From contig CAJINV010000003.1 in assembly GCA_905178155.1 (NCBI GenBank), forward strand, positions 8,108,245 through 8,157,668: a stretch of DNA of 49,424 nucleotides. Direction: 5' to 3'. The position numbers and the translations under genes are program-made. This document shows positions 2,297-34,123 of this stretch, piece after piece. The notes under the pieces are model-generated. The model was not told the origin of the DNA. It was given only the letters and a program-made list of their open reading frames with translations, and made no database searches. Numbering within the stretch: the first letter of the stretch is position 1; the number at the start of each line of letters is the position of its first letter. This DNA comes from Amoebophrya sp. A120. Its lineage: Eukaryota; Protista; Dinoflagellata.

Positions 2297-2660
2297 AGGA
2301 CCCGGGTTTTTTCCTCCCTTCACACTACAAAATGAACCTAAAAAGTTTTTGTCTTCGTTGAAGAGCAAGTGACTAGAACAAAAATGAAACTCGTGGATTC
2401 CGTGAGCGGTTTGTTTTGAAAATGTGTCAATTCAAAATAAATGTATGCCCGGGCAGCAGCAGGTTAGCGAGCCTGTGAGTCTAGGCTGAGGATGGTCGGG
2501 CGGTATTTTATGCCCGTGTCCGCCCTCAGCCCTTTAGTGTACGGTAGCCAGGACTTGAGAAGATTAGTCAGGACAACCCACCGAATTTCGGGGTGGTATT
2601 TGTTCGCCTTCTCTTGTTCCCAGGGAGTAACGCCCCTGCCGTTGGTAGTAAGTCTCGTTT

Positions 2661-3846: not shown

Positions 3847-4433
3847 TGGCCCGCTTTGCGGATGATCGTTAGTCCCGCTTTGCGGATGATCGTTAGTCCC
3901 GCTTTGCGGATGATCGTTAGTCCCGCTTTGCGGATGTTTGGCCCGCTTTGCGGATGATTGGCCCGCTTTGCGGATGATTGGCCCGCTTTGCGGATGATTG
4001 GCCCGCTTTGCGGATGATTGGCCCGCTTTGCGGATGATTGGCCCGCTTTGCGGATGATTGGCCCGCTTTGCGGATGATTGTTTGGCCCGCTTTGCGGATG
4101 ATTGGCCCGCTCTGCGGATGTTTTTTTTTGGCCCGCTTTGCGGATGATTTGGCTTCCGCTTGTCGGAAGTTTTGGCTTCCGCTTGTCGGAATTTTTGGCT
4201 TTCCGCTTGTCGGAAATTTTGGCTTCCGCTTGTCGGAAATTTTGGCTTTCCGCTTGTCGGAAAATTTGACGCCCGCTTGTCGGAAATTTTGGCTCCCGCT
4301 TATTCGGAAACTCGACCTTTGGCTTCCGCTTGTCGGGAAATTTGGCTTTCGCCTTTCGCAAGTTCTGGCTTTCGCTTGTCCGAAGGTCTAGCCTGGTGCG
4401 TTGTGCGGGAATTTTGGATTCCGTAGGTCGGAA
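3847..4433. repeat. Hairpin minisatellites in unit 2 (~14 copies of the first type, then the second type)
   Basis: Direct reading; copy-number expansion explains most of the longer period of unit 2. Confidence 0.9.
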
Positions 4434-10048: not shown

Positions 10049-11871
10049 AAGCGAAAATTTGAATTTCCAAATTGATTTTTGCCACTGATTCATCTGAACA
10101 TGATACTCCTAGATGATATGCAACCAATTATCTTCTTTGCGCACGAGCATAACAATAACTGAGACATGAAAGAAGCCAATGATGTGGGTAATTTTCTTTG
10201 GCGCATTTGTTCGGTTTTACACCTGCGAGTGCTCCTTCGGTTCGACGAGGCCTTTGCAGTTTGTGCCAGCAGTTTACTTCCGCTACATCACGAAAACGTG
10301 CTTTCGCCTGAGCTCGCTTCCTGGGATTTACTTATTTTTGCATTTTGTCTCTGCTTGGCCCTGGCGCGGCGTCCGTCGGTAAATTTAACTGTTGATTACG
10401 CAACGGCACGACATGTTGCCTTTTGTGGCCAGCAAAGCTCCTTCATACTCATACAAATCGCATTGCAACGAAAATACTCGGTGAACAAACATTCCATATC
10501 GGCAACTCAATTCTAAGCATTGCCAAAACTGAAATCGAAGTACTTGAATCCAAGGTAGTAGCTGGTAATATGGAACCTTTTTCGGACTCTGTAATCGGTA
10601 TGCACGAGCGCCTTCTGTTTCAGCCCGAATTTGTCAGTAAATTTCTGTTGATTGCACCACGTGCATCGGCGCATGTTTTCACTTTTCTCTCATCAGTAGA
10701 GCATTTCCATTTGGAGATGTTGCTTTACCTGATGTAAATGCTAGGTTCGACTTATCTCCTGTCTAATCATAATGCATTCCATAAATATTTTAAACGAATG
10801 TTTTTTTTGTGTTTTTACAGGACCTCAAGATCTGCCAGATGTATGACGAGATCTGAAACATTGATTTCCTATGAAATCAAATGGGTGTCGAATGAAAATT
10901 TCCTTTTGGCTCTGCAATTGTAAAGTATGTGCTTAGTGTCGCTCCTTATGAGTCCCGCACTGTATGAAAATTCCAAATCCTTTTCATCGATCTTAGGTAT
11001 GACTGTGAGACAAATGACAAACAGAAACCGCAGACTCACCTGGGAACGACTGAAGGCGAGAAAAATGTCGCCTACGATGATCCATCTGTTTTGCTAAAGA
11101 GCCTTTGCAGAATTTCAAATAGGTATATTTCATTTGACTTTTGTTACAGCGATCTACAAAGTTTTTTTGTACTCGTGGCCTGTCTGAGCAGCGATTTATT
11201 TATCATCTGCTCAGATTCAGTGTCCACGCTTTTTACGTGTACGCTTTGTAATCAATTTCGAAGCATAGGGAAGATATCCGACTTTTTTTGCGGCAGAAAC
11301 TTTGTGGTTTCGTTACTTTCTGTTTTTTTTTAGAAATAGCAAGCCAAAACCTAAGCTATTATTAGGTGCATTGTATTTTTTTTTTTTCGTATTTTCATTT
11401 TCTAGATCTAGATGTATGATTTTTTGTCGTAGAGGTACTTCTTCTACTTGGTTCACTTGTGGAGCATATGCTCACTTATCCGCTTCTGTGTAAATTTTCG
11501 CCTGGTTTCTCTCTTCGAACATTGTCGATAGAAAGGAGCGATAGGGACGAGATGTCGGCCAAGATTTGTAAGATGTACTAATTTTTTGATGGTCGAGATT
11601 GTCCCAGTTCTTTTCGCCGGCAAAAATCAATCTTTGCGGACGTTTTTTGGCCGCTTGCGCTACCTCCAGACCAGCAATTGGAAAGCGAAAGACAACAACC
11701 CAGCAGACCACTATCGGCGCCGCCATGGCGGACCCCGACCGCCAGCAACTCGCGTTCTGTGCATAACGTAATCGGTTTGGCTTCCAAACGGATTATCCGT
11801 TTCGGGACCGTCTAGGGTAGTAGACCACTGTTGCCGGGACAGCGGGGGAGGCTCGCACGAACGCAACCACT

Positions 11872-14800
11872 ATGAGTTACGACCGAGGCTTCTACCTGCT
11901 GGGCGAGAAATGGTGGTGGCGCAACCCATGGACGGTGGGCCTGCAGTCCTTCCTCGGGGAGCAGCCGTGGCCAGCCACCCAGCTAAGCCTCTCCGACTTG
12001 CTGTGGTACGAGCTCTATTGGCTGGGCGTCACCTTCGCGCTTTTTGCGGTGCTCCTGCTCCTCATTCACTGGGCACTGTATGGCCACGGTATCACAGCCC
12101 GACCACTAGACGAGCAAAGTGCCGAACACAGCGGGCGCGAGACGTTTCTTTCGGACAACGAGCAGCAGATCCTACCAGCGTACCCAGTGGTGGAGCAGCA
12201 GAGTCCGCGCCCCAGTGGTGGAGAGGTAAAAAAGAACCGAAAAACCTCCGATGAAAGCGAAGACGGCGACGTACAAACGCCGACCAGTTCGGAAGACGGC
12301 GAGGACGGTAAGAACACTACAAAGACCACTTCTAGAAATAATGCACGAGGTGGCCCCGCCCGGACCAGCTCCTGTTTGCGGACGCTAGGGCAGTGTGTGT
12401 TTTTGCGCCCGAGTATCAAATGTAAAAATGTCTGGGTCTGGAAGCGTGTAAACTTGTGATGCAGATTTTCCATGACCAATGAGGTCTGGAATGCGGGACT
12501 TAGCATGACAGACTCTGCGAGGTCTCCGCCATGCCTATCCTGCATGAGAAACTCTCTCCTAACTTGGTCGAAAGTGGACAGCTTTTGGCACTCATGCAAT
12601 ACAGATTTTTGTATGCTTTAGATTTACCATGACAAGTTACCACCTTCCAGACCCAGACATATTTGCAATCCATACCGAGTGTGCACGAGCGAAACTGGGC
12701 CACCGGCACGCTCCTCGTCGTCACGGTCGGGTTGCTGTTCGCGAATCTGTGTGTGTATTTCATGCTGTCGGAACAGAGCGCCCTCTCCCGGGAGACGTTC
12801 TTAGACATGATGCACAAACTGGAAGATCTGGGCCGCGCCACCTGGCCGCGGGTGAGCAAAGACGACTCCCCGGCGACCTGGTTTGACCTCGCCGAACAGA
12901 AACTGACGGACATGGGCGATGTCGATGTGGCCAAAGTGAATGTGGCCAGTCGCTACGTGGCGGCTCAACTGCGGTCCCTGCCGCCACAGAAGGTGGACGT
13001 GAGTGCCATTCCCATTTTCCAGCCCAACGACGGCGAGACGGAGCCGCTCACGCTGGTGCGGGACTTTGCGTGGGTGTCTTCGCAAACGGTGCGCGGGGTG
13101 TTCGTTCGGCAAAACGACGGCACCGAGGGTTTGGTTTCGCACTCCTCAATTCTGCAGCAAATGCTCAAGGAGTGGATTCAGCGCCGGATGGACGGTGCCC
13201 GCGTACTCGAGATGTATCTGAGCAGCAACTGGTGCGACTCCGACTGGGCACCGCGCCGGCAGGGGCCTTGCGGAGGCGGGTTACCGCCGCCGCCGCCCGC
13301 ACAAGAAACGGCGGCTCCGAAGACGGCACCACGAGCACCGGAAGCCCAGCCGAAAATTCCGACCATCGACGAGATTCGAGCGAAGCGTACCGGCGTGGTG
13401 GGGGTAGAGCTCCCCGACGAGCGGGGCCCCCGCGAGAATCTGCACTACCACCAGAGTACCCCACAGGAAAAAGCAGGCCGGGCATGCTTGTTTATGCAAA
13501 AGTATCTACATGATCACAGAGAAATCCGCAATAGGCGACACTATTTGAGCATGCTGTTTGCGATATGCGATGCAGATTTTTCGACGTATTTGTTTTTGTA
13601 TGCTACTAAAGAATCCGTCCTGCCTGCTTTTTTCTGTCGTATACAGACCACGTCGAAGACGATTTCAGGTGCGTCAAACCAGTGGCTGGACGAGTCGGCC
13701 TGGGTCACGGCGGCCGGGAAAGGACAGACCGACGTGGTGACCGCCGACGACCCGCAGCTTCCGGCCCGGCTGCGACAACAGTGGCTCGGGTACTTCGTCG
13801 CGGTGCAGAACGGGAACTTTATGTCCAACAACCCGTTGCAAAACGCCCCCGCGACGGCAATACGGGTGGACTTGTTTTCGTACCGCGGCATGAGCCCCGA
13901 GAACCTGTACGAGCTCTGCCTGGATGCCTTCGAGGATGCGGTGCGAGCCGCGCTCATCAGCATCCGTGCTGTGCCCGGGTCCCAACCCTGGAGCTTGACG
14001 GACTCGGACTTCCTGGACAAGGTGCACGACAGCAACGCCTGGACATTTGTGTGGCTCAAAGAGAGAGGCGAATACGTCAAGTGCGTCATAAAAGCGGACA
14101 AAGACGACCCGTTCCAGGTCCCGGCGCTTCCCCCCAAGAACGGGGAGATGGCTTCGTTCCTGCAAAGGCATTCCAATGCCAATTCTGGTACAACTCCACC
14201 GGCGGACGATTTTGAGTTTCACACTACTCCAGATGCACCAGAGGCTGAGACTGCTACTGAACTGAACCCCGATGGTGCCGGCGCCCAGTCGAGAAGAAGA
14301 AGAAAGAACGAGGCGGGCTTTTTGTCTCCCGATATACCTGAAATGGTGGACGACGACGTGGCGAACGCGGGAGTGACGGAGGAGGGCGCGGTCGACGTAA
14401 ACGTCGCTGGATCAACACCTAGTGCCTCAGCAGCTGAGCAGCAGATGAGAAATAATAGGATCACCTCCTCCACCTCCAGTGTCCTCGCTGCCGGATTCCG
14501 GTCTCGCGCAACCGCAGCGCAGGCAAAGGTCGGTAGGGAGTCCCTCCTGCAGCTGCCGGACGATGAAGAGGACCCGGAATTTGACGGGTCGCTGAACTCC
14601 TCCGAACCGCCGCCGGGCTGCGTCGCGTGGTGGCTGAACGTGGACCCGAAGCCGGTGGCGCTGCAGCTGCTCGCGCAGTCCCGGTTTTGCCAGGAGGACC
14701 CGGACAACGTGGTGATTCCTGTCGACCACCGCGTGGTGGTTTCGCGGTTCGAGCTCGACCTGTACATGCTGCGGCAGAAGTACCGCCGCTTTTTTCTGGG

Positions 14801-17800
14801 TGCCACCGAGGACAACTCTGCCCGCGTGAGCCGCCCCACGTGGGACTCTCTTTTCTCCCTGCGGCTGGTCTGGAAGTGGCTGCACCTGGTCACCTTCGCC
14901 GTACTGGCACTCCGCTTCCTCGTGCGCCTGCTCACCGCCTACCACGTAGACCCGGAGGTGTACCCCAAGGGCGCCTGCAGCTACTTTCTGAAGCACTGGA
15001 CCGCGTGGCTGGAGCTGCTGTTGGTCCTCCCGGGGGTGTTTTTCACGTACTTGGCGCTGCACCGGACCGCCGAGGACTTCTACGGGAGCCACCTCATCTA
15101 CGGCACCAAGGAGATCATGCCGGGGTACTTTCTCTTTCTCGCGTTCGACGTGGCCGACTGCTATCTCGTGCTGCGTCGCCACAGCGCGAAGCTCCTGCTG
15201 CGCGTGTACGTCATCATTGCCCGGCCCTACGCGTACGCGCTGCTGCTGATGCTTGGCGCGTGGGTCACCATCGGGGGCGGGTATTGGCTGACCCCGGTGA
15301 ACCGGGAGATGCTCCCGGGCATCGGCAACGACCAGGAAAACGGGTCGGGGCTCCAGCCCTCCAAGGAGGCGGCCAACCTCCGGGAGACCGCGTTCTCGTC
15401 CATCGGGGACGCCATGTACCACGTCTTCGTCAACTTCAACGGGGAATTCCCGCTCGGCACCGACCACCTGACCTTCTGGAGTCGGTTCTGGGCCCTGATG
15501 AGCGTGTTCGTCGGCGTTTTAATTCTCACGATTCCCGTCGGCATCTTCAGCAAGGCGCTGCAAGAAACGCTCGAGGAGACGCAAGCAGATCAACTGCGAC
15601 AAAGCCTGGAGGACGAAGAGCAATCCGCCCGGGCAGCTGCTAACCGGGAAAGCAAAAGTACAACCAGAAGCAGCAAGGTGGAGCCAACGGATCGTGCAAG
15701 CTCGAGCGCGCGGGGCAGTATTAAGTCATCTTCTTCACGACCACGCGAAAGGGAGAGTTTCCTCAAGTACGATTTGGAAAATGATGAAGCTGAACTGTTG
15801 TCCGATGTCGATTTGGAGTCCCAAGCTGGCGTGGATCCCAGCAATAAACCGGCGACCGGTAGCAAGCGTGGGATGTTTAAGCGCATGGAAACCGAGACGA
15901 TTCTGGACCAGCAGGAGCGGCTTGACGAACTGGACAAGCAGCGGGAGCACGTTGGCCTCTCGGATCCGCTGGAAGACGATTTTATCGACGGAATCGAGTT
16001 TCGCCCTGGTTTCTGGAAGCTGCTGGTACAATTGCCGATTCTGCATGGTTTTTTATTGAGTTTTTATTTCCGTGGAGATTCTTGATACATAGCATGTCTT
16101 TTGAAAATCTTTTGCAGTGTTGATGAGCCTTCGACGCGTACTGCTGTTGCGTTCGTGGTTTCCGCTAAAGTCGAACTTTACGTACTTGATTATTACCTAC
16201 GGGTCCAGCTCGAGCTGTTCGTCCCGTTTTTTTACTTCTCATGCCCGGCGCCGCGAGCGCTCCTACGGACACAGTGGAAGCATATTGATAATTGGCTTCC
16301 GAAGGAACGTCGGGAATGTAAGTCAGTATCAATCTCTGTGACAACATTCATTACTTGTCTCACAACGAACTAAACAGGGGAGCCTACTGATTCGGCGCAG
16401 TTGTTTGTACGCAAGCGCCTCGGTGGGAATGTGCTCCATCCTGGTCTACATTGTGTTTGACTACTACCAGGGTTACGCCCTCTTCGTGTACGACCAGGAC
16501 ACCTCGGTGGCGTTCCAGCCGTGCAGCTACTGGGACTGGAATTACTTGTGCGGGCGCATCGACCGGAGCCAGCGGTACTCCACGTTCAGCGTGACGGCGA
16601 CCTCCAGTGCGACGACGCCGCTAGATTTGACCGGCGCGCCCGGGCGAGAGGAAGCAGACGAGAGCCCCAACTACCTGCACGGCGACTACTACGTTGCGTT
16701 TAACACCCTGCTGGTTCTAGAAACGGTGTGCATGCTCTTTTTTCTCCTCGAGTACCTCGTCCGCCTGGTGGACAACAACTGGCACGAGCGGTGGATCAGT
16801 CACAAGGTGCAGCGCCGGATCGGAGCAAAAAAAATCCGGTACGAGATTGACACCAGTCGTCCCTACCCCTTCACCGTTTGGTATGAGAGTGTCAGGATCG
16901 AAATCGACAAAATCGACCAATTTGTAATGCATAAAACGTAGGGCACGTAAGGCCTGTGTTAGGGAGCAGGCAAATGAGGCCGATTGCAAGCCTGTTTAGG
17001 GGTATGGAATGTGCTGCCAGAGTAGCATGAGAGGAGCCGTCTTCTTTGCCCAAACAGCATGACAGACTGGATTTTGGTGCTCCCGAAATTTGTCATGGGC
17101 CACTTGGAAACTGCGGCCCCACCTGGTATCGATTTTATGCATCACAAAGTATTTCGATTTTGTCGATTTCGATCCTGACAGTTCCATATCTGGGGAATCG
17201 TGGACCTTATTGCCTGGCTGCCCTCCTGCGTCATGCTCATCATCTTCGCCTACCAGTCCACTCTCGACAACAAGTGCGACACCGACGGCCACAAGTACGG
17301 CTGCATAGATCTCACGCAAGACTGGTACGAATTATGCAGTGATTACTTTATTTTGATTGAATACAACGACTACGTAGTTTTCCACCTGTGTAACATGAAC
17401 AAGAACTCAGTTGACGTTAATATTACTGTTGGGCACTGTGTTCAAGATACAGATAGATGATCGCGCATTCCCAGATGCACTATTGATTGATATGCCCCCC
17501 ATGCTCGGTCGCAGGTTTATCCGAAATCTTGCATGCAAATCCCTCGTTTCCACACTAGGATGAGATCGCCCCCATTGATTCACACTAGGAGATGATCGCC
17601 CCCATTGATTCCAAGCGACGGATCAGCCCCTGACAAATTACCCCAGTGCTCTTCGGAGCCCGGTCCTTCGGGACATATCGGCTACAGCGTGGTAGTTGAT
17701 AGGTGAAATGTCGGGCCCTCACACGGATTCGCGCTCTTAACATGAGAGATTTCGCAAGTTTTCGCTCGTGTTATAGCATAAGGCCGTGCAGTGTATATTG

Positions 17801-20800
17801 ATTGATTGATTGATCACTGGGAGGTTGTTATTTACTGTTCCGGGGGAATTTCTTTATCTTTTTTCCATATACAATACAGGATCTGGAACGTGTATTGGTT
17901 CGTGTGTTTCCGGGCCCTGAAAATGGAGCGGTTGCTGCATGGGTTTTCCAGTATCCGCAAAATCCTGGGGCAAGCGCTGGGACTGTACGAGTTTTTTCTG
18001 GTGGTGATCTTCAGCCTGATGCTCACTCTGAGCGTCGTTCTCCACATCACGGAAGTGAATAACCCGGACAACGAAATGCGGCGACAAGTCTGGTCGTTTC
18101 CTCGATCGCTGTGGGCGGTGGTCCTGACGGTAAACGGCGAGTCGCCGTGGTCCGACTACACGTACAAGGGTCGCGTGGTTCATGTGTACATGATGCTCCT
18201 GGCCGTCCCGTTTTTTGCCGTTCCCTGCGGGTTGTTCGCCAACGCATACCACAAATACCTGGGCCAGATCCAGAACCCGCCGCCGCCCAAGCCGGAGGGT
18301 GGAGACCACGCGGGCAACTCGGAGGACGGCGACAGCGACAGCGACGACTTCCTTGACCACGTGGGCGCCGGCGCGCCCAGCAAGAACAACGACTCGTCGC
18401 CAGACGGGGGCAACAAGCATATCGACGACCCTCTGGACTATGAGGATTTCCTCGCCGACGACGAAACGAAGAAGTCCGGCAAGCAGCTGAGCCGCGCACC
18501 GCAGACCGGGCTGTCGTCTGTGCGGCGCGCGTTCTCGAGTCTGTCGAAGCGCACGCAGACGCAAACCAGTTTCTCCGCGTCATCGGAGCTGGACTCGGAT
18601 CACCGGCGCGGGGGGGAGAACAAGCGCGACCGTGCCGCGTTCATGCGCGGTAAGACATTCGAATCGGTGAAAGAGGAGCCGATCTCGCGAACCGCAACCT
18701 CGGCCAGCAGCAATGTTGACGCGGAGCGGCACGAAAAGAAGGAGCTCTACAGCCGGCGCTCCGCCGGGCACGCCACGCCGCCGGCCTCTACCTTGGAGCC
18801 GGACGGGTGGGTGCACGCGCAAGATGAAAATGGCGAGGAGGGGAGTCCTCTGCTACTGGACGAACAACTCGAGCCTGGTGGTCCAGTGGCCACGACTCTG
18901 CGCAACCGGAAGAGCGTAACAGAACAACCCGTGAAGGGAATCATAAGAGCGGACGGAACAAAGTCGAAAATGTTTGTGCGAAAGAAAACTGCGCAGCTGG
19001 CCATGAGTGTTGCCTCCGAGGATCTGTACGTGCCGGCGCCCCTGTCCCGGTCCTCGCAGGGCAGCGCGTTTGCTGCGGAGGTGACCGTGGAAGACCTGTG
19101 TCAGGACTGGAAGGGCTGCTTTCCAAGTGATAGCGCCACGGTGGTGGAACAAAGACACAACGACGACGAAATCAAGACCGGCGCAACTTCTACGACAACC
19201 GGAGCGCCGCCCTCCTCCTCCTCCCCCCTGGCGATGGGGCTGCGACGCCGCATGCTCGAAGAGGAGCAGCGGCGCGAGCGCATTTACCCGGCCGCAAGCG
19301 AAGAGTGGGCGGGGGTGCATCGTGTCATTTGGTCACCAGATCACGTGTTGTTGGCCAGTCCGGCGGAGCGGTTTTGGGCGAAGCTGCGCAAAACCCTCAC
19401 GATGCTGCTGTTACCTCTGTTGTTCTTCAACACCGTGTACTACTCCACGCACCACTTTTGCGCGCTGCACAATTTCCAGCAGCTCGAGGACTGGCGAGCG
19501 TACCTCGAAGACCGGCTGCGGCGGCTGGGCATGCGGTCCGCCGCGGGCGAACGTATCGACAAAACCGAGCACGGTACCACCCTCATGGTCCTGAGCTACC
19601 ACAACAACTTGCGAATGAAGATCACGCTCACCCCCCAACCGGACGCGCAGGAGTGGACTGTGACTCAAGAGACTGAGCAGGCGCTGTACTACCCCGACGC
19701 GGCCTTCGCGCAGCCGGAACTCGATCCGGATACGGGCGGCGTGGTCCCCCCACCGCCCCGGCTGTTTCGCGCCTTCCCTGCGTCCTACGAGACGCAGTAC
19801 CGGCCGCCCGATCACAGCTTCCTGCAGCGCTATCTCGTGCGGTACTTCGTCAGCAAGCGGCAGCTGCTGGTGGCCTGCAGCGCGGACGACAGTGGGGACG
19901 ACAACGACTCCGACGACCCCGAGACGGGGCCGGCGGACACCGACCACACCCACCTGACGGTGCCGGTTTGGGTTTCCTTCCTGTCCGCGGACCAGGTGGA
20001 GCGGAAGCGGGCCGCGGACTTCCCGCAGAGTCCGCAAGATTTTCTGGACTGGATCGAGCAGGAGGCCGAGAAGCTTTGCAAGCAGATCTCCCAGGAGTAC
20101 AACGCGGACGACGTGACGCGGTCGGACGCCACCAACGCGGACAGCCTGGCGGCCGAGAGCTTCGACGCAGTGCGAAACGACGCCGCCCGCGAGTGGCCCG
20201 ACCGCCAGAAGTTCTACGGCGGGCGGCTGGTGAGCCGGGAGCAGGCGCTGCACGAGATGGACGCCTACATTGCGGGGTACGAGGCCTTTCTCGGCATTGG
20301 TGGCTCGTCCGACACCGCCGCGCCGGGCTACCAGCTGCCGGCGCCGGGTGTGCTGGAGCGGCTCCGAGTGGGGCTTTTCGGGCAGGACTACGAGCACTTG
20401 CCGAACTGGTTGTACGCGGTCGACTTGCTGATATTCGGGGTTTTTCTCATCGACTACATGTTGATCCTTCTGTCGTCCGCGAAGAAAACCTGGTATCTCA
20501 GCGGGGTCGCCGGGATCTGCCACCTCTCCGGGCTGGTCGGCCTCGCCATGACTCTGGTCATCCGCTTCGTTGCGGAACACGACGAGTTTTTCAACGTGTA
20601 CGCAGACTTGATCTACTCGGCACCCGGCACCGCCGCACGGTACGCGATGCTGACCGCGCTGTCGCTCCGCATGTGCATGGTCGGCTACCTCGACAATTTG
20701 TATCCCAGCATCCGTATGGTCTACGACAGTGTCGTCAGGTACGCCAGATGATCGAGTTCATAAAGTTTCGTCAATTTTTTGAATTTGTGATGTAAGGTTA

Positions 20801-23326
20801 TTGGCTCCAATGTCAAATTCCAATTTTTTTTACTTACTTGAAAGGGAATAAATTCAGTAGATGCAGCAGAGAAAAGAGAGGCAAGTACGCGAATAATCAT
20901 CGAGTTGTCTTCAATATGGTTGTTTCTATGTTGTTGTCACACGGAACAAGAAACTAGGAAGAGATCATGCGCTTTTTGGAACATTCTGAAATTGTAAGAG
21001 CCCCGCCGTAAGTGAGGAACTGCTTTCGTAAAGAGCTGCAAAACATCGGCGAGAAATAAAAAACAGGTATAAGCGCGAAATGATGCAGGCAAGCTACATC
21101 GTGCTGATTGTGTGGCTGTTTGCGAGTGCCTTGTTTCACCTGTCGGAGCGGGACAACTTTGGGACGCAGAAGGACCCGGGAAAAATGTCAACGTGGCGCA
21201 CCATCGAGGGCCTAGACAGCGAGGGGCACTGGCGCACGCTGCTGCGCCCCGTGAACTACTCCCGGTTTTACACCATTTTAAACTCCTTTCAATACATCAT
21301 GATCCATCTAACCGGCGACTACCCCATCACAGAATACACAAACGTTGGCCGTATCCTGCATTTCATTCTCATGGCTGCGGCGGCGGGTTTTTTGGCGGTT
21401 CCGACGGGTCTCTTCGTTGCGGTCTACGCACAGCAACTCAAACTCACGCGGGCCGCAACCATGCATCTGGCGCGGCGATTTGCGGCCGTTCGTGTGCAGA
21501 GGCATTTCCGGGGCGTTTTGGCGCGAATAAGGTTTCGCAAACTTATCCAAGCTGCGCGGGAAAACAAGGACCTGGTGCAGTCCGCACAGCCGACATGTTT
21601 TGAGAAGTACGCTACAAGATTTTCAGTTCTTCCTCTGGTTTGATTTCAATTTGGTAGTCCAGCACCTTTGGGCGGTTTGTTGTACCAACTTTCGTGCTGT
21701 CACTGCTTGAAAATATACTTGATGCATACAATGGCACTCCTCATGAAGTTGAAGTCCGACTTCTGCTCCGATCATTAGTATGAAAAACGAAACCAGGTTT
21801 TCCGATTGGTGTCTGTCACTGGTGTCGACTCGGCCTTGGCAGGTAACACGTTTCGGATATTATTTCCAATGGTTCATGATTGTGATCCATGGAACCGCGG
21901 CCCTGCTTGGAATTGTCCTGTCGACGCGGATCCTTCAGTGGGTCGACCCCGATGATCACGGCTCGTTCCGGCAGACGGCTCAGGGGTATGCAAGAGAAAA
22001 ACTGTGTAAGTGTAAGTCTGTGATGCAAAGCATGCAACATTGTTACACTTGTCATGCTAGGCAACCATGAAGTCCTATTTCATTTCTGTTTTCACTTACT
22101 TACTAGCAGCTGCGCATGACAGGCTTTGTCTGTCATGCAGAACAGATTTGTCATGCCGTCACCCTAAGACACTGACACCTACACTAACACAGTTTTTTTG
22201 TTGGATAAGAGTTTGTGGGGGTTGAGTCTCGTGTGCCAATGCTTTTTCCTCGTTGAGTACCTCCTCCGACTCGTCGCGGCGCGCTCCATGCCCCAGCTGA
22301 ATTTCTCGCCCTGGCGAATGTTCAAAAAAGTGGCCAGCCTGCTGGATCTCGGCCTGATCGTCACGTGGGTTGCTTGCAACCTCGCGGTGTACGCAGCTGT
22401 CCGCAACTACGACAGCAACACCACCCTCGCGGGGCCGCCGTTCATGAAGCCCACGAAAAACGTGGTGGGACCGAGTCGCGGTGAGCCCTCCGTGCCCGTC
22501 GAGGACTGGATGGAGGCTGTCATATGGGTACTATACAATGCGTAGTTTATTAGTACTTCTACTAGGCAGTGACCTGCTGTTCATCAACATCTTCGCTGAA
22601 AATGGTTGTCCTTTAGAACTTTTCTCAGGCAGGATGTAATTATACTTTTGCGACCGCATGGATCGATTGTCCTTTGTGGGATTTGAATATACAACAATTC
22701 TGTCTTTGAGTTGTTTCAAAAATACACAACAGGATCGAGTTCCTAACTTTCTACTTGCGCTTCACATTTGGCGACTTTTGCACGCGTTATTTTTCGCGGA
22801 CTGGTCACTGCACGTGAGCGGGCATCTCGCAACCCAGCAATTGATGGCGAACGCGGGCATTTTGGCTTTGTTTGTGTTTCTGATTGGGGGTACGCTGTGG
22901 TGGTTGTGCGAGCGGCAGTTCCAGAATGAGTTTGACAGCCTGTGGAGCGGGATCTATGGCGGGAGCATCTTCCTGTTGTCCGAGTGGTTCGTGTGTGACT
23001 TCCAGGTACCGGGCAAGATTTTGTGCATTTTTTACTGCGTCGCAGGCGTGGGCATGTTCGGGATTGCCACCGGCGCCATTTACGACGGCCTGGGCGAGGG
23101 ACTAAACCACTTCGTCAAGTACCGTCAACACGTCACGTGGAGTATGCTCAAGGAGGACTTCCACGACCGAGAGATGGAAGCCCGGCAGCAGGCGCGAGAG
23201 ATCCTGGACGACTACTACCAAATCGCCCCGCCGGGCGAGCGGGTGCGGGTGACGCACTTGCTCCTGCCGGGCGGCCGCCGCTCTGTCCCATCCGGGCGGT
23301 ATAATAATTCCAGGAGTAGTGAATGA
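11872..23326 (+). CDS. Large four-repeat ion transport (voltage-gated-like superfamily) protein with IQ motif, ~3006 aa, 9 inferred exons
   Basis: Exons ~11872-12413, 12680-16025, 16378-16881, 17194-17324, 17880-20738, 21067-21606, 21797-21985, 22212-22527, 22733-23326, all frame-consistent. Pore loops NFNGEFP, TVNGESPW, HLTGDYP, FLLSEW, each followed by an S6-like helix; S2 FFLxEYLxRL; S3 IVDLIAWLP; IQ-like VQRHFRGVLAR. Confidence 0.8.
12414..12674 (+). mobile_element. Introner element family A (261 bp), non-canonical intron
   Basis: TIR TATCAAATGTAAAAATGTCTGGGTCTGGAAG ... CTTCCAGACCCAGACATATTTGCAATCCATA; TSD CCGAG; removing 266 nt gives FLRPSVHERNW. Confidence 0.93.
16882..17188. mobile_element. 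Introner element family B (307 bp, ~55-nt TIR), non-canonical intron
   Basis: TGTCAGGATCGAAATCGACAAAATCGA inverted at both ends; flanks TTTGG/TCTGG; removing 312 nt gives YPFTVWGIVDLIAWLP. Confidence 0.92.
21987..22207. mobile_element. Introner element family C (221 bp); intron 21986-22211 reads GT-AG
   Basis: TIR TATGCAAGAGAAAAACTGTGTAAGTGTA / TACACTAACACAGTTTTTTTGTTGGATA; flanks AGGGG/AGAGT; removing 226 nt restores frame. Confidence 0.88.
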
Positions 23327-26300
23327 CAATGATCCACGACGAGTGCTCAGTTTTCTCTCCCAGTACGACTGCGAAGGAGAGCGCAACGAAGCACGGTTGA
23401 GTTGCGTCATGAATTTAGTTAAGTACATCCCAAATACATCGAGCCCCATAGTAGATTCTCGGCTTACTGACACCTGACACATAAGGAAGCTTCTTGGAGA
23501 ATCTATTCTTACATGACCGCGAGGACCCAAATTGGCAGGTCCAAAAAATTAGAAACAGCTAGGCACGACAGCCGTTTTGCTTCCTTACGTATGAATATAT
23601 CAATTCGCATCCACCATAATTCGCATACAGACACGACAAGGATATTTCGAGAAGCATGTTGCTACGATTTGTCATTCAGTACCAATACTTTTTCTAGCGA
23701 TGAGTGGGACTGTAGATGGCTCACGGCAGCTCTACCCCAATAGGACGAAAGAAATCATAAAGTCCCCAATTAAGTAAAATGATACCAAGTACTTAATTTA
23801 GGCAACGCCAACGGGCAACAAAAATATATGCGACAGTTTGAGAGCCTCAAATGATTTGCCACAGGCGGTCGTAGGCTCAACATAAATCAACCCGTCGATC
23901 AACCAATGTGGTTCAATTAGCGTAAAAGTGACACTAACACTAGAGAATATAGCAAACGTCTGCGGCAAAGGACGTGTCTGTGCTATACAACGAGCATTCG
24001 ACATGTAGACGAGCTGCGAAACGCACATCTCCAATGCGATTCTATTGTTTTTGGAACCCCAGGAAAAGAATACAGGTTGAAATACACTGTTCAGCGACCG
24101 TTCATGTTGCGGTGCTAGATTGATACACCAGCGAGTGGCGACATTACTTAAGAAGGTCAGCACAGAAGATATTTTCTGGAGGAAAGTACAACAGGGGGAA
24201 CTAGATGGTCCCACCGCAGGAGGACAGGAACGACGGAAGTCGGTGCGTGTTCCTGAAAAAATTACCAGCGAACTGCTTCTATTGCGAGGCAGAGTTCCAG
24301 ATCCTGAAAAGAAACTTTACGTCCCGCGGCATCAACGTGTTTTTGGTGTACCTTTGTGTGCAGCTTCTTACACGCATAATTTTCCACCAATTTCACCGGA
24401 CCGTGTAATGGAGCCAGGTAAAACTAAAATACTTTATGGTCATGGATCGGAAACAAAATCTCCTTCAAGAACAGCCCGTAGACCGAGCTGCAGCTGATGT
24501 CTTTTTGTGCTTTTGCTTTGAAAATTGCATGACTTATGAAGCAAAAATGCAGACCGTTCAAATAGTGATGTAAGTAGTCGCCGAAGTCGGCATTATTTTG
24601 GTCATTTACAAATGCTAATGCAAGGCCAAAAACGACGCAAATCCAAATGCAAATCCAAAGCAAGTGAAGATGTTGCGAAAATTGAAATGTTTTCAATAGC
24701 ACATGGAAACCAATATGGTCACTCTATACGCTCCCGTGATCACTAATTTCAATTTATTTTTCGCCCGCGCAAACGAACGACAGCGATTTTACGATGTTAT
24801 TTTTATCTTGCGAACCTGAAAAGAAGTGAAGAGCGGCTTTTTTTCTTGCACGACAAAAATGGGCATTAGCAAGCCCACCCCGTTCGGGGGAAGTTGTTCT
24901 CGCCTGAACGACAAACTTAAAAGACCGCTGGCATTTTTGGATTTTTTTCATTCCTGTAAATCCCAAAGCAATGAACGACTCGGGTTGTGCTTGTGTTTGC
25001 GCGCAGAAGCAGCACAAGCTTTTTCTTGAAACAAATAGTAAATTACAGTCGAAGTAGTAGTTTATCAAAAGTTGCTCCGGCGTAGTCTTGACAAGCCCTA
25101 ACACGTAGCTCTCGATTCAGCGCTTCTTGTTTTCATACACTGATAACAATTTTCTTTTGCGTTTGGCGTTTCACTTTCACGTACATGTCTCGTGCCGAAG
25201 ATCTATTTTACTGTACTGAGTGTTAACCAGCGGGTGGAGCCGAGTTTTTGTGCCAGGATTTTGCCAGGTGCACGGGACGCCAGTTCCAGAGATTCATTGC
25301 GTTACGCGTGAAACGCCGTGACCCCAGCAACGTAACACAAACGCCATTAGAGCTTGCACAAGGAGCTGACACCACTTTCTAACAAGCAGTTCTCGATCAT
25401 CTTCGACTTCGGCAGAGGTCTCATCAAGAACGTGGCACATCTAGCCAATTCATTAGTAGTGACATCACGAGGAGGAGCAGGACCAGGAGCAATTTGCGTT
25501 TGACCTTGGACGTGACCAGCTACCTTTTGACACGAAAAAACCCTGTATTGTGTCAGGCCCATGTATTCTTCTTGGAGCGATGACGAGAAAAAAAAACGAT
25601 CTGCAAAAGCACAAGCACATTTCGGAAAGAAAAGCCAACAAATGGTATTCGCTTGCAATATTTTCCTCTGTTTTTTTGTTTTTGACAGTCGTGGTTGACT
25701 TTTTTTTTCCTACACAGACATAGGCGAGCCGCGCAGCTGAAGGTGGTGCGTCTACTCTTTGCTTGCGGCTTCAATAGTTCGAGCGGCAAGAAAATTCATT
25801 CGATTTTCATTTCCGATGTGCGCTGCTTCCTCAACTTGATTTTATGTCATTCTCACCACAGGCGAGAAATTTGGGGCGCAAGCTTCAAGCCAATGCCGAC
25901 CAGATTGTGTACGGACCGAAAATCTGTTCGCGGACTCGTGCCCTTGCTTTGCAGTGCCTGCTGACGATCTTGTGTGTGTAGCGGGAGTATTCGACTCCTA
26001 CTAGCGGGAGTATGATTCGAGTCCCACACGCACAAAGCGTTATTAGCGTCGTCGGCAGCACTGCAAAACCAGAGGAGGAGTTAATTTTTTCATTTTATAA
26101 ATGAGAGCAAGGCGATCGCGATCGCGCCAAAGTTCTCGGTAAGCAACACTGATCGATTATATAATTTTCATACATATGAATATCAATTTGTGCTCTTCTC
26201 ATGATATTGACTTCAGAACGGAATACACCGAAAAGCGTTCTTGTAGTTGTAACGAGAAAACCTTTTGCATATCCTGGTGTGGCCTCCCGGATTCCATTTT

Positions 26301-27289
26301 TTTCCCCAGAAGATGAAAGCATTGGACTTCGTCATATTATCTGAGGGCCCTTTGCACCGTACGGCCTTGTGATTTCCGCACGATTTGTTGGCCGTCCTAG
26401 GGGAAAACGTGCACACGAGGAAAGGCCATGCACTCACCCAGAAAGAATTCAAGTAAGAACTGTTCCGAAGGCATGGCTCGCAGGATCATCGTCCGCCGCA
26501 CCACAGTCATAGCTTCGATTATGTAGCGCCAACGAAAACGATTAAGTACGTTCGTTGAGTTTTCATCAAGTCTTGCAGCGCACTGAATAAAAACCTGCGC
26601 TCAGTATTTGTAAATAAAGAATACCGCACGCGCACCGCTCCCACAGGTGAAGTAAGTATCTCAGGAGAAGAATCGATCGCTTGATGACTTTTATATGCTC
26701 GTGGATCGACCGAACGAATGTCTCGATTATGTGGCAGAAGTTGAAAAGTTCGTTGTAACAGAGAATGCAGGACACGAGTAAAAACGCTAGCTCTAGCCCT
26801 CTCGTTCTGGTGTCTCAGGAATACAACCGCCGACTAGATGTAGGAGGAGAAGATCACACTGTGTCTGCAGAGGCAGTAGTGACACATCCATGGCTTATGT
26901 ATCTTCAGTGGAGGAACACGAACAGGAAGAGCATCGCGACCAGGCTTAGAGGGCAAGAACCAGAATGAATATTCAGAAGAAACCTTTTTACGAGAAATAG
27001 AAGATTCCAGCAGGAATGATGACTCGCTGCAATCACGTATCAAGATGAAAGCAATAGGACTGGGGCAATACTTGTTCTGGAGCTGACGGTCTGCAACAAA
27101 GCTAAAACAAACACAAAGCAATTTGGATTTGCACAAAGAAATGGACGTCAAATAAACTTTTTGATGCGTAGTACCCGATGTACAACCATGATAGTACGCG
27201 AAGTAGTCCGTACTAGCTTCTCCCTACCGCTGTTACCATTTGCCGGCTTTCACCTTGATATGGGTGATTTATCACACGTTATTTAAAAG

Positions 27290-30200
27290 GCGCACCACCG
27301 CCAGGAGAGGATGAGCGGCGCTCCAGGAGCGGTCGGCGCGGTGGAAGAGAGCGAGACCGCGACCGAAACCGCGAAAGAGATCGCGAAAGAACCGCTGGTG
27401 GGCGAGACCTCGAGCGCGGGCGACACCAGTCGACGAACAATGACCGGGCTGGTACCGAATAGTTTTACATTTTTTTTCTTGCGCAAATGAATAAATAAAA
27501 AAAAAAAAAACCTCCCGGTCTCGTCTGTTTCGGTATCGGTGGGCAAAAAGGAATGCACACTACTTCCTTGTCTTTTAGTTTTTTTCCTTGAAATTGCAAG
27601 ACGGTCTCTTTCGAAATCAGGTAACGAGGAATACGACCGCGAGCGGCGCAACGAAAAGTCTCGCCGCGATCGTGAAGCGAATCGTCGGCGTTCGCGCGAC
27701 CGGGAGCGCGACCGTGGCGGAAGAGGTGACCGCGACGAACTCACGGGAGCGCAAGACCACAGTCGAACCGGCAGTGTTGCACCTACGGGCGGGAGTGCCT
27801 CTGGAGCGAAGACGGACCGTGGCCAGAACAAGTACCAGAATCAGCGGGGCAGCACGCGGGATTTCGATCGACAGGAGCGCGGCACGGGAAAAACGACTCT
27901 ATCGGAGTACAGTAGAAAAGATAACACCTCTAAAAACTCTGCGTCCTCTAATGACTACTACCAAGCTGCACCCACCAGTAGTGGAAGTAGTGGGCACCAG
28001 CAGCACCCGGCCGCTGGTGCGAGCGATTCTTCTCTGGGAGGTGCGGACAAGAGCAAGCGCGGAAAAAGCGAAAAGCAGCCCGTGGTACCTGCTTCGAAAA
28101 AAGAAAACGAAGCCGAACGAGGACGGCTGGCCAAGCTGCGGGACGACGCGAAAAATAAACAGGGTGACAAAGCGAAAGCCGGCAGCGGGGAGGCTCCGAC
28201 GTCATCGGCTATGTTGACGGCTTCTAAGAAGAACAAAGGTGAGGACAAAAAATACGCGCACAAGGACACAGGCTCCACTAGGGCAGAGAAAGAGCAAAAT
28301 AAACCGAAGGATGCCGATAAATTGTCGTCAAAAGCAGGAACGTCGAAAGATAAGGCTGAGAAGCTCACTGCTCGGGAACAGGAGCCGGAAAACAAGGTGT
28401 CTAGCAAGGACAAGGATAGGAAGAGAGCCAACACCGGTACCAAAGCCGCGACGCCGTCCTCGAAAAAAGAGAAAGAGAAGGAGCAGGCGAAGGTTGTCGT
28501 GAAGGATGGAAAAAAAGATGATCCCATGGATGTTGATCACGATGACGAACTTGAGTTTCAAGACACCTCCCGGCGCGATAAGAGGAATAAGCGAGACAGG
28601 GAGAAGAAGGAGAAGCGGCGGGGGTCCGACAAGTCCGCCAAGAAAAAGGACATATCAACTGTAAAAATGTCTGGGTCTGGAAGGTTGCAACTTCTCATGC
28701 TAAATCCGTATCATGCAAAGATCTGTGTTGCATGATTGCCAAAAGCTGTCCACTTTCGACCAAGTTGGGAGGGAGTTTCTCATGCAGGATAGGCATGAAA
28801 GAGACCTGGCAGACTCTGTCATGCTAGGTCCCGCATTCCAGACCTCAAGGGCCATGGAAAACCTGCGTGACAAGTTCACACTCTTCCAGACCCAGACACT
28901 TTTGCATTTCATAGGACACGAACGACGACAAAAACCGCGCCGTCTCCCCGGATCGCGAGGAGCGCAAAGCGCGCAAAGATGCTGCGAAGAAGAATGATGA
29001 CGACGGGACGGCGAATAATACTAAATCTGCTCGGAGTGTCGAGGACAAAACTACTGCGCGTCTCGAGAGGGAGAAGGAAAGGAAGAACCAAGATAGAGCT
29101 GCAAAGAGGGACCAAGAGAAAGAAACGGCGTCGGCGAAAAATAAACGAGCAGCTTCGCCTCCCCAAGGGCGGAGCGGCTCATCCGCAAAGACCCGTCTCG
29201 CACCGCCTGCCGTCCCGGCGATGCCTTCATCATCCAGCAGCGCTGCGGGAAGCTCCACCGGCGTCGTTCTCACCAAGCGGAGCGATGTGGTGCTCGAGAA
29301 GAGACGGAGCGCTGGCCGGGATCGACGGCGAGAGCGTCGAAGATCCAGCCCTGACCAGCGAAAAAAATCCGGACGCGAGCCTCCGCGGGCGGACGGAAGT
29401 TCGGCCGCCGGAGTGGCACCGCCGAAACTACTGACAGCTTCTGGTGCGCCCACAGGTGTCCCGGGGTCGGGTACTACGGACAACGCATCTTCTGGAGCCG
29501 GGACTGCGCAGGTGAAAAAGGCTGTCCTTTCTCCGCGCGACCCGGACGGAGTGCTCGCGAATGGCAGTAACATCAACAAGAGTGGTGCACCACTGGAACA
29601 GGCAAATAAACCCAAGGTGATTTTGACTCCGAATCCTGCCGCGGTTTCGTCCCGGGAGAACACGTCAATCAATAAAACAAGGCGTGATCACCAGGAACAA
29701 GAAGAAGAGGAGGACGAACTTGTCGACGTGTCGCTGTCTAAGATAAAACCGCGGAAAAAAAAGCGCGACCGAGAAGATCGGGACCGCGAACGGGAGCGCG
29801 CGACCGGGGGAGTGCGAGCAGAAGGGAAGGAGCGGGACCACAATAATGTCCGGGACCGAGGAGTCCGAGGGGACCAACACCGGCGGGAAAGTAACCGAAC
29901 GGGCCCAGGTGACCGGCCGCGCCGAGTTGTGACAGCTCCCGACATTCAAGTGTCCTCCGGAAGTCGAGCGGCATCCGCAGCCGAGGACATGGTAGACCAC
30001 GAGGCGAAAAAGAAGAGAACCGAGAAAAAGCATACCGCACAAGACAAAGGACCACGTGTTGGCACAACATCAGCAACGGGTGCAAATAAAGTCGCGCCAG
30101 TGTTGAGTAATGGCTCGATCGCAGCAAATGACGCGCCCATTCAGGCCTTGAGTAAGAAAATGGAGAATAAGCAAAGTGCTAAAAATCATGCGCCGGCTGG

Positions 30201-33200
30201 TGCTTCTTCTTCTTCCCCAGAAGACGTTGGGTTATTGTCCAGTTCCATAACGCCAGCTGCCGAAAAGATGAAGGGCGAGCATCATGTCCCGGTGAAGCTA
30301 GAGCCCGCTCGCCAGACTGCAGCTGCTGGGACGACGACAAAGGGAAATGTTGATACAAATTCCAATGGAGCTGCTGCTCCGGGGCCAGCGTCCAACAAGG
30401 CCCTCGGGCCGATTGCCGGCGCAGCTTCCGGCGCTAAGCCAGCTCCATCGGGTGCGCGTTTGCTTCCGCCGGCCTCGCGCAACCGGGCCAACGACCGGGA
30501 GCACCGGGCCGGTACAACTACACGCCGAGGCGACCGCTCCCCGCGACCCCGTTCCCGTGGCCGGCGGTACAACAACCGAAGCAAGGACCGGCGGTACAAC
30601 CACGACAACGATCACAACTACAATCCCCCGCGCCGCACCCGTAGCAAGGACGGCGACGAGCGCCCGGCGGGCCGGCACGGTGGCCGGCCGCGGGACGACG
30701 ATCGGCCGAGCAGCCGGGGTCGCCACGTGCACGAGCAGTCAAAGGGCCGCCGGCGGTCCAGAGACCGGCGAGACCGAGACCGTTCCCGGGATCGACGTGC
30801 CAACCGTGACTCGCGAGGGGAGGATCACCGCCGTGTTGCTGACCGGGAGCGCTCCATGCGACACCGGCGGAGTCGTTCCCGGAGAGGCCACAGGGAACCC
30901 GAGCGTGAGCGGCGTCGCGATGCCCCGACCACCCGCATCGCTCCGGCAGCTGTCAATCAATTTCTTGTCTCGAAGAAGCCACTGAATTTAGAAGATCACA
31001 GGTACTACTGCGATACATCAGTACTGTAAAATGTTTCTGTCGTCTCATCTCCCTTCAAGCATATTGCATAAGCGTCCAAGTCAGCACTGTAGTTGTCTCT
31101 TTGCTTTTCCTTTTGTTATACTTTTACTTTTGCAGAAATGTTTGAAATGGAATTTTGTTATCGTAAGAATCCCGCACTCTCAAAAATTGCAGGGAACTGC
31201 TGCTGTACATGTTCGGATTTATCGGCGACATCCCCACGCCTTTCAACCTTGACGAGAAAGGGATGGAAAATTATTCCCGCACGGAGGGAGTCAAGCTCTG
31301 TTCCGCGGAGGAGTACAAGCTGGCCGTGGATCAGGGGGCGAAGCTGGCCAATCGGGAGAAGAACCCTCGCGTGGTGAATATTGTCGAAAAAATGCGACTG
31401 TTAGGTCCCGACCCCCAGAACGATCCCGTGTATGTGCCGCGCATTGGCAAAGGAAAGTTTTTTCGCAAAGATCCGTGTGTTTCGACCGCACTTGTTTCTA
31501 CATCGACAATCAACAAAGCTGGAAATACCCCGACCCCGAAGCCCTCCGTGCCCAAACCGGGTCAACAGCTGCCAAGCTCCACCGGGGCGGGGAGCGCAGC
31601 AACAACGAAAGCAGCGACTTCTGTGTATTCAAAATTGAACCCCGTAGTTCCGGCCCCCGCAACAAACACGACAACCAAAGGAGCCGCACCTTCAGGCGCA
31701 AAAGCCGAAGCAGGTGGGGCGCCACCCACGGCGAAAGGCGACACCACCAGCGCTGCGGTGACGACAGCAGGCAAGCAAGGCGCAACGGGCACGACCGCCA
31801 CGGGGAAGGGCACAGTGGTCGTGAAGGGCAAGGGAAAGGGAAAGAAGGGGAAAAAGGGCATTGATGCCGCGACGCGGGAAAAGCTCTTGGCGACTTCGAA
31901 GGTGCTGAACCGCGACGGCAAGCTGAAAGCCCAAAGCAGTTTTGACCAGGAGAAGTCGGAAGGCCAAGGAGCTGCTGATTCGAAAAACAAAGACAAGAAA
32001 AAAGACCCTGTTGATGTGTCAAAGGACGGCACGATGGCAGAGAAGGATGCTCCTGCAGCAGATGGCAAAGTAGACAAAAAAGCCTTGGATGTTGATACGA
32101 AGGAAGGTAAAAACAAAAAGAAGAAGACCTACGCAATGGACGAAGACAGTTCGGAAAGCTCTCCCGACAACAAAAAGCCCAAACTGGCAGCGGTCACGTC
32201 GGAAGACAAGGTTGGCAACAAGAGCAGCGGCACCGCCTCGGGCGGCGTTAACAGTGTGGGCGTGAAAAGTGGCGTGCAGAGCGGGGCGAACAAGTCGGAT
32301 CCGGTGCCGAAGCTCGGCGGCCCGCTGTCCGGCATTATCAGCGAAAGAGGACTCCATCCGCCGAGCAAAGCAGATTTGGAGGCCCTCGGCAACGAACTTC
32401 GTGGGCCGGCGTTTGGTGTTGCAACGGGGACGGCCGGCAGCAGCGGGAGTGGCATTGCCAGTCAGAACGCCCCCTCGTTTGGAGAGCGCGAACGCCCGGT
32501 GAAGGAGAAGAAGGCGCCTACCGTGGCAGGCTGCGAAACTCCTCCACCAAGCGCTCCCGCGCCAAGTCGCAAACAAAGAGGCGGCCCGGTTATTGCGGGC
32601 TGCGAAACGCCACCGGCTGATGTCTTCGAAACCCGAGGGCGGGGCCGATCTCCCAAGAAGAATATCTCAACTGGGCAGTGGGTTACCATCGAAAAGGGTG
32701 CTGATACGCTACCGAAGAAGCCCGACATCGTATTTGGATTTACTAGGTTATTGATGGTTTTGTATTTGTTGCAGCAAAAATCAGTGCGAGCCTGATGCCA
32801 TCATATCGCGAATGTGATGAGACTTTGCAGAATCATGATGATAAAGACGATACAACTGCTTACCAAGGCTGATATCCTCGGTGAGGAGAAACCTCCATCT
32901 CATCGCCAGAACTGATAGAAAATATAGACGCATTCGCTTCCACTTAAGACCTTCCATATTTTTTATGTTCATGTTGATTATTGTATGCACCATTCTCGAC
33001 GTGTGGCATTCTCGTGGGGATGTGGTTGTGGACCCCAACGGCTTCCATGTCGCTTGCGAGATCAATTAATTGATTAAAACAAATCAGTTTTCGTTGCGAC
33101 ACGCGTGCGTGTGGACGGACCAGGTTCCGGCTGAATTCGAGACTGCATCGCTCTATGAGGGTTTTTTAGCATCCGATCTGCGGAACCGCTGGTATCAGGG

Positions 33201-34123
33201 AACCAAGTTTGCGCCCGCGGGCAACGCCGGCGATGAAAATTCCGATGACAGCAGGTCGCGTTCGCGGTCCTCGTCTCGGTCTCGCTCCTCCCGGTCGTCA
33301 TCCTCCTCCCGCAGCCGGCGTCGAGCGCGCAGCGGATCGAGCTCCAGGTACTTGTTACCTTCTGACGTTTACTAGTGTGCAAAACTCGTTTGGATAGCAA
33401 CTTTTTCGCGGTGTAGTTTTCTCGTAGCCAAGTAGAAGCTATTTGTTTTTACGAGACTACTTCATCCGAGCATTGTTACTCAAGTTCCCTCTTGCCCCCC
33501 GTGAATAAGAAATCTCCATCTTTTTTCGTCGACCAGGTCCAAATCTTCCCGCTCGTCACGTTCGCGGTCTAGCAGAAGTTCACGATCACGCAGCTCGCGT
33601 TCCCGTTCCGACAGTTCCCCTATCCTCAGTAAAAACGTCTCTTCCCCCATATTTGCTCATAGAAATCTGCATGCCTAAAATGTTGCCCATGCGCAGCCCC
33701 GTGCGGACGCAGAGCATTTTGGAATGCAGTCTGGGCATCAGGAGAAGATGATAACGATCGATTTGTGAGACAGACAGACTTGACTGCAATATTAGCTAAC
33801 CACAAGGACTTCGCAACTGATCCAAAGTTTTGAATGCGCAACAGCTAAGATGTGGATGACTCTTTGGCGTGTGTAGCAAAACTGCCAGCTAGCCTGTATA
33901 TGGGGTGCAGACGTTTTCACTGAGGATATTCCGGTCGGGCTCGCGATCCCCTAGTCGCGCAGCGGCCTCGTCTGCGCAGGAAGTAGACGGTCCTTCCGCG
34001 CAGGGTGGGTCTGCACCTGCCACCAACGCTGATGGCGTGCGAGCAAACGAAACCGAAGGAGCCGCTCTGCCGGCGGAGGCAGCGCTCCGCGGCGCTCTGC
34101 AAACCTACGACGACGAGCTTTGA
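27290..34123 (+). CDS. Large Arg/Ser/Lys-rich low-complexity protein, multi-exon, 5' end unresolved
   Basis: Exons ~27290-27451, 27621-28652, 28919-31001, 31193-~32746, ~33100-33347, ~33537-33620, ~33934-34123; RS/RD/RE dipeptide tracts; junctions around 32750-33120 unresolved. Confidence 0.65.
28653..28913 (-). mobile_element. Introner element family A (261 bp), inverted relative to the 12414 copy
   Basis: Same TIR; interior is the reverse complement of 12414-12674; TSD GGACA; removing 266 nt gives KKKDTNDDKNR, joining ORFs 27539 and 29221. Confidence 0.93.
33621..33928. mobile_element. Introner element family D (308 bp), non-canonical intron
   Basis: TIR TATCCTCAGTAAAAACGTCT..CCCCATA / TATGGGG..AGACGTTTTCACTGAGGATA; flanks TCCCC/TTCCG; removing 313 nt continues the RS tract in frame. 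Confidence 0.88.

Follow-up and report, generated by a model that had tools for sequence, protein, structure and literature searches.

Precise RNA-level removal of family A inverted-repeat introners of Amoebophrya sp. A120 in either orientation

Family A copies and their host genes

The window analysed here is the whole 49,424-nucleotide stretch of Amoebophrya sp. A120 contig CAJINV010000003.1, and all coordinates below are positions within it. It contains two long genes on the + strand, each interrupted by a 261-nt copy of an inverted-repeat element that we refer to as family A, together with three altered copies further along that were recognised from sequence alone. The genes and the family A features are as follows:

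11824..23326, + strand: host gene 1; spliced, 2,958 codons stop-to-stop (end approximate)
12409..12413, unstranded: left TSD of copy 1, CCGAG; its last base is the putative intron position +1
12413-12678, + strand: putative intron of copy 1, GT..GA, its register taken from other introns
12414..12674, + strand: family A copy 1; TAT...ATA ends and a terminal stem of about 30 bp with mismatches mainly at positions 4-7; an RNA-type contig skips 266 nt
12675..12679, unstranded: right TSD of copy 1, CCGAG; its first 4 nt are putatively intronic
25530..34124, + strand: host gene 2; spliced, 1,847 codons stop-to-stop (start approximate); low-complexity
28648-28652 and 28914-28918: TSDs of copy 2, GGACA
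28652-28917: putative intron of copy 2, AT..AC
28653..28913, - strand: family A copy 2; its body runs against the + strand gene that contains it
41118..41374, + strand: diverged family A copy of 257 nt with TSD GGAGC and a decayed right arm; the frame is open once it is removed
42319..42493, + strand: internally deleted family A copy of 175 nt inside a gene for a cytosolic carboxypeptidase; TSD CCGCA
44261..44416, + strand: truncated left part of a family A copy, about 155 nt, without a right arm

Copies 1 and 2 were recovered by a repeat finder as 261-nt arms that are 86% complementary, and a BLAST comparison aligns them at 87% identity over 254 nt (E-value 7e-87). They lie in opposite orientations, both start with TAT and finish with ATA, and both are flanked by perfect 5-bp TSDs. 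Terminal arms of 39 nt are 79% complementary and terminal arms of 31 nt are 87% complementary, and folding predicts a near-perfect stem from position 8 onwards in both copies and both orientations. A search of a viral collection gave no match.

The sequence-only reading had proposed that two such copies sit in opposite orientations inside + strand genes, and that removing the element with one TSD restores a long open reading frame; both proposals are borne out, the restored frames being those of 2,958 and 1,847 codons with RNA-supported joints. Without splicing, each host frame meets a stop within its element, gene 1 at 12457 and gene 2 at 28733. Frames on the - strand are much shorter, the best opposite gene 1 having 482 codons and none opposite gene 2 exceeding 300. 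Host gene 1 encodes about 2,900 aa, and three of its exons compared with Pfam give only a weak match to Ion_trans that falls under the cut-off; three exons of host gene 2 give no Pfam match. The further copies proposed at 41118, 42319 and 44261 are present, although none is intact: the first has its decayed arm, the second its internal deletion, and the third is a left part only. When 42319-42493 and two further elements are taken out of the carboxypeptidase segment, the resulting 142 aa are 91% identical to the homolog P0001.

Removal of both copies from RNA

A 10,640-nt contig of run X3 skips exactly 266 nt at copy 1 (12408>12675), alongside + strand GT-AG introns; X3 is the sole RNA-type contig run compared at that locus and the one source of this joint. 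At copy 2 the corresponding joint, 28646>28913, also skips 266 nt and occurs in all four of the runs X3-X6, which derive from at most two samples of one study; in X4 and X6 the contig that carries it also spans the GT-AG intron 27450>27620. At both sites the 266 nt correspond to the element plus one 5-nt TSD. These RNA-type runs are contigs from a single study whose RNA status is tentative, and contigs reveal neither strand nor efficiency nor rare joints; in keeping with RNA, the runs skip ordinary introns, and their depth falls to zero in several intron bins. Two raw RNA runs, X11 and X12, contribute just five and three reads, every one partial.

We conclude that the family A element is taken out of RNA precisely, whichever way round it lies. 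Sites at which the host frame could be kept open by conventional splicing do exist nearby, with 14 in-frame GT/GC..AG pairs around copy 1 and 10 around copy 2, one of them spanning 266 nt. Nevertheless, no cryptic GT-AG joint crosses the reversed element among the nine joints at copy 2 (threshold 5%); at copy 1, minor joints of this kind may occur. GT-AG is not read in any possible register at either copy. The precise removal at both copies thus gives the junctions that the sequence-only reading had predicted, and neither an unspliced orientation nor the use of a nearby cryptic GT-AG site was seen.

The splice register of inverted-repeat introns

We use k for the number of left-TSD bases that stay in the upstream exon. 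Since the TSDs of the family A copies are perfect, their own register is ambiguous, with seven possible positions each, and the other introns of the window were examined for mismatched TSDs. Among the 18 RNA joints listed, seven remove an inverted-repeat element, always the element plus 5 nt, and eleven remove ordinary introns. TSD mismatches constrain the register in five of the seven inverted-repeat introns:

13456..13647, + strand: inverted-repeat intron of another family, 192 nt; TSD mismatch, k 0-4; RNA skip
16881..17192, + strand: inverted-repeat intron of another family; RNA joint, k 2-5
21986..22211, + strand: inverted-repeat intron of another family; RNA joint, k 3-4; GT..AG at k=4
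25909..26103, + strand: GT..TG intron enclosing a decayed element whose ends read TAC...ATA; k=4 only; element status less certain
33620..33932, + strand: inverted-repeat intron of another family; RNA joint, k 2-4; CT..CC at k=4

The sole value common to all five is k=4. The intron at 25909-26103 may instead be an ordinary GT-TG intron, and when it is left out k is either 3 or 4. Likely, then, the 5' cut of inverted-repeat introns precedes the terminal TAY by one base, and the 3' cut follows the terminal RTA by four. Family A presumably shares the register of these other introns, which would give GT..GA at copy 1 and AT..AC at copy 2. The ordinary introns with a joint listed all begin GTA (11 of 11; eight GTAC, two GTAT and one GTAA), so that the terminal repeat would supply positions +2 and +3 of a normal donor, while the +1 base among the RNA-supported inverted-repeat introns includes C and A.

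The published splice-site pairs are in keeping with this. In Table S4 of Farhat 2021 (PMC7789003), nine of nine predominant non-canonical pairs of A120 have the form NT-NN, and the hybrids GT-NN and NT-AG are the commonest A120 classes; nine of nine A25 pairs have the form TT-NN, and the repeats of A25 begin TTA. As far as the accessible text of that paper goes, these pairs hint at a fixed register.

The 13456-13647 intron is in frame and free of stops, and is therefore concealed within a 1150-codon open reading frame, although RNA skips it. A register rule would place junctions correctly in gene models and would catch in-frame cases of this kind.

The register also bears on the alternative, raised by the sequence-only reading, that the element is excised from DNA, somatically or at a particular stage, before transcription. 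Terminal inverted repeats with TSDs are substrates for transposases, the life stage of the DNA-like and RNA-like runs is not given, and contigs lose rare variants, points that can be counted in favour of DNA excision as a rare or stage-specific event. However, the DNA-like run X1 joins the element ends to both flanks at both copies, at a depth of 42-44 compared with 43-50 in element-free bins, and the 12408>12675 joint is absent from the joints listed for X1. Moreover, the mirror register k=1, which a two-fold symmetric DNA reaction should produce equally often, is excluded in four of the five informative introns. We regard DNA excision as very improbable.

Orientation across the family in a related assembly

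A pattern scan yielded at least 183 loci, every one from a single public assembly of a related genome, with at least 269 unique inverted-repeat elements that carry TSDs. A codon model called the host strand for 148 of these, and the 121 uncalled elements were dropped. Applied to the verified genes of the window, the model was right 46 times, wrong three times and undecided 22 times, and for cross-locus pairs that share one contig its strand calls were consistent throughout (63 of 63). Orientation in this assembly is read from sequence, the copies having no RNA support of their own.

Among the matches listed, 36 called copies have a match to the family A body, 15 in the sense and 21 in the antisense orientation; the corresponding sense and antisense counts are five and eight for close copies, and four and four at the strictest threshold. 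Both orientations are represented in each of the seven clusters of at least four copies among the matches listed. The family-wide count in the related assembly is thus in agreement with the claim of the sequence-only reading that family A is used either way round. The TSDs match at five of five positions in 116 of the 130 listed elements with family A arms, under a filter that demanded at least three. In the 70 listed copies examined for the arm motif, in which TA was forced by the finder, each arm has T at position 3 in 69 of the 70 and A at positions 11-13 in 68 to 70 of them.

Conventional splice signals are at most weakly represented in these elements. A GT/GC-AG pair falls within the TSD slide in 15 of the 148 called elements among the matches listed. 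In the register proposed above, G occupies +1 in 57 of the 148 listed elements (p 0.05) and the 3' end is AG in 17 (p 0.035), a weak preference; AG is equally frequent 7 nt further out (18 of 148, compared with 17 at the 3' end). An AT-drift test on mismatched TSDs, using the DNA of the related assembly alone, was null (13 versus 12), and TSD composition gave a weak result for the register.

Copy 2 could in principle have been inserted the usual way round, with the body alone flipped later between its terminal repeats. Its outer ends do read TATC...CATA along the transcript, as do those of the other copies in the window, and TATC...CATA by body orientation is found in only one of the 21 close copies listed. 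Against such a flip, the base at position 4 does not track the transcript across the family (20 versus 17 of 70 listed copies), and among the matches listed the antisense orientation is no less frequent than the sense one. We give the flip scarcely any credence, and the family-level conclusion on both orientations stands with or without it. The related idea that TATC and CATA ends are polarised by the direction of transcription failed on the same 20 versus 17 in the 70 listed copies; the base at arm position 4 tracks the orientation of the body and not the transcript.

The ends of family A fall into a few discrete variants at positions 4-7, which are shared between unrelated bodies and also combined in mixed pairs (loci L001-L183), a pattern that suggests arm shuffling or gene conversion.

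Mechanism of removal

We favour, with some reserve, removal of family A by a relaxed U2-type spliceosome that takes U+2 and A+3 from the terminal repeat and places the 3' cut by its distance from the end of that repeat. Under this model the terminal repeat would provide the U+2 and A+3 that are found in ordinary GUA(Y) donors of the host, leaving +1 free, and the opposite arm, seen on the RNA as a U-run followed by AUA, would together with the predicted stem set the 3' cut by distance and not by AG. The 5' cut would lie one base ahead of the terminal TAT, and the 3' cut four bases past the terminal ATA. As both cues would be present on both ends, either orientation would work and the pre-insertion mRNA would be restored at any target; the copies themselves would spread as non-autonomous DNA transposons. 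The single off-centre register predicts that T+2 and A+3 are essential, that +1 and the last two bases are free, and that the 3' cut lies four bases from the repeat end.

The genome paper reports nearly all spliceosomal proteins in Amoebophrya (Farhat 2021, PMC7789003), which speaks for this model, as do the frequent hybrids with GT or AG. The same source reports that U1 snRNA was not detected, which counts against the relaxed-spliceosome model. The GT-AG ends of U2 introns are absent from family A, which has T+2/A+3 alone in common with ordinary donors. A U12-type reading, suggested by AT..AC at copy 2 and by RTATCC starts, was dropped because, according to the accessible literature, no minor spliceosome was detected in Amoebophrya.

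The sequence-only reading had attributed removal to the symmetric terminal stem rather than to directional signals. The RNA displays UAU-N7-A-run at its 5' side and U-run-N7-AUA at its 3' side whichever way the element lies, so orientation cannot by itself separate a stem from directional signals. The off-centre cut and the donor motif held in common with host introns point to directional reading, with the 5' side equal to +2/+3 of an ordinary donor, and the proposal is not supported as it was worded. The stem probably assists in placing the 3' cut.

Nearest to that earlier idea is a structure-guided machinery like that proposed for the nonconventional introns of Euglena, giving the same RNA removal and register, with a stem that joins the ends and cuts at fixed distances; the intron may then leave as a circle. 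Euglena introns resemble family A in their inverted-repeat ends, proposed MITE-like origin, off-centre cuts and lack of GT-AG, and differ in having CDG/CH'G at +4 to +6, a separate machinery with proposed circles, and rare hybrids (PMC12501133). The Euglena signature is itself off-centre, N3CDG...CH'G N5-6|R (PMC12501133), and is not found in family A, whose ends read N|TAT...ATA N4. Such a machinery would account for the almost unconstrained +1 and final two bases, for the near-perfect stem predicted from position 8 in both orientations, and for a host in which U1 has gone undetected. It fits less well with a 5' motif that equals the host's ordinary donor at +2/+3, and with the GT-NN and NT-AG hybrids, commonest in A120 and rare in Euglena. 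Likewise, the 25909 intron has the same register although terminal pairing is not predicted for it, and in the family A arms pairing at positions 4, 5 and 7 does not exceed chance (31 versus 37.7, 35 versus 37.9 and 21 versus 24.5 of 70 listed copies). A Euglena-like machinery is the main rival and seems to us unlikely, though well short of negligible.

A broader formulation, which we put forward as a possibility somewhat short of even, is that transposon ends carry a second splicing code, N|UAU...AUA-NNNN|, read by a ruler-type machine without U1 pairing, G+1 or AG. Such a machine could be the spliceosome in rewired form or a novel set of enzymes. If true, an insertion at any 5-bp target, in either orientation, would become a scarless intron, and one rule would take the place of the 'unprecedented diversity' reported for the splice sites of the two strains.

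Relationship to known introners

The comparisons made here draw on the accessible parts of the sources cited. The introner elements described from A120 (Farhat 2021, PMC7789003) have in common with family A an inverted repeat of the form TAT, seven variable bases and an A-run, 3-5 nt direct repeats, lengths of about 240-260 nt, non-canonical ends, RNA support and an organisation in repeated families, of which 1,954 are published. The sequence-only reading had given inverted-repeat introners with non-canonical ends as established for Amoebophrya, and family A indeed shows the testable A120 features: an inverted repeat of the required 8-20 nt or more joining the intron ends; 3-5 nt direct repeats across the exon/intron boundaries (CCGAG and GGACA); TAT, seven variable nt and at least three A; and a repeated family (at least 183 loci) with RNA removal and non-GT-AG ends at both joints. 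Family A thus looks like an introner of the known A120 type. The published description differs in giving splice sites as 'variable' relative to the hairpin (Fig. 3 legend) and the dinucleotide signature as not clear; no statement on orientation independence or on a fixed register in Amoebophrya was found in the openly accessible text, and the figures may show a register.

Introner-like elements of Polarella glacialis are flanked by TSDs, act as introns in either orientation and derive their splice sites from the element end plus the TSD (10.1101/2020.10.14.339549), and the introners of Aureococcus have the same traits (Huff et al. 2016 via 10.1101/2020.10.14.339549, PMC10228655). Both differ from family A in using GT/GC/GA donors, AG acceptors and specific targets, with frequent register shifts and an orientation bias, whereas in family A the +1 base and the 3' dinucleotide are almost free, one register fits throughout, and bias is undetected (15 versus 21 among copies listed).

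Introns of Fritillaria borealis likewise have terminal inverted repeats, TSDs and non-GT-AG ends, and are reportedly removed by the U2 spliceosome (PMC11282704, 10.1101/2025.08.15.670264), which provides a precedent for a relaxed-spliceosome mechanism; they differ in their mostly AG-AC and AG-AT ends, their target preference and their unrelated lineage. Among DNA transposons, IS3EU and GingerRoot elements have the same TA..TA termini, encode an integrase-like transposase and usually have a TSD of 6 bp, compared with 5 bp in family A (PMC10045372). Integrase-like open reading frames are reported inside A120 introners with terminal inverted repeats (PMC12130899). Kinship of family A with IS3EU/GingerRoot is at present a lead only.

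About 60% of Amoebophrya introns lack GT-AG, and the genome paper left their mode of removal open (PMC7789003). Inverted-repeat introners of Amoebophrya and either-orientation introners of Polarella are already known, and the addition made here is a simple, testable splice rule. If the rule is true, it would explain the wide spread of the elements, as neither target sequence nor orientation would be limiting.

Other features of the window

An inverted-repeat element without a clear TSD lies at 27038-27260, nested in the ordinary GT-AG intron 26139-27289. The window starts with six tandem copies of a 13-nt unit (1-78), possibly subtelomeric, and large tandem and dispersed repeats occupy 2400-5340 and 48390-49160, with units of about 1.2-1.4 kb containing 20-24 nt subrepeats and units of about 197 nt.

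The carboxypeptidase region has several further peculiarities. A 52-nt block occurs four times, at 41034, 42074, 43394 and 44405, at three of these sites directly 3' of an apparent truncated left arm of an element, and is absent from the 183 loci listed in the related assembly; it may stem from duplication in place, from a further element or from an error of assembly. Between two elements, the spliced carboxypeptidase segment at 42261-43311 has two residues more than its closest homolog, P0001, a difference that could be the footprint of an excision or simply an indel. In the same gene region, 42186-42260 and 43312-43386 are two pieces of a different element family, 77% alike and in opposite orientation.
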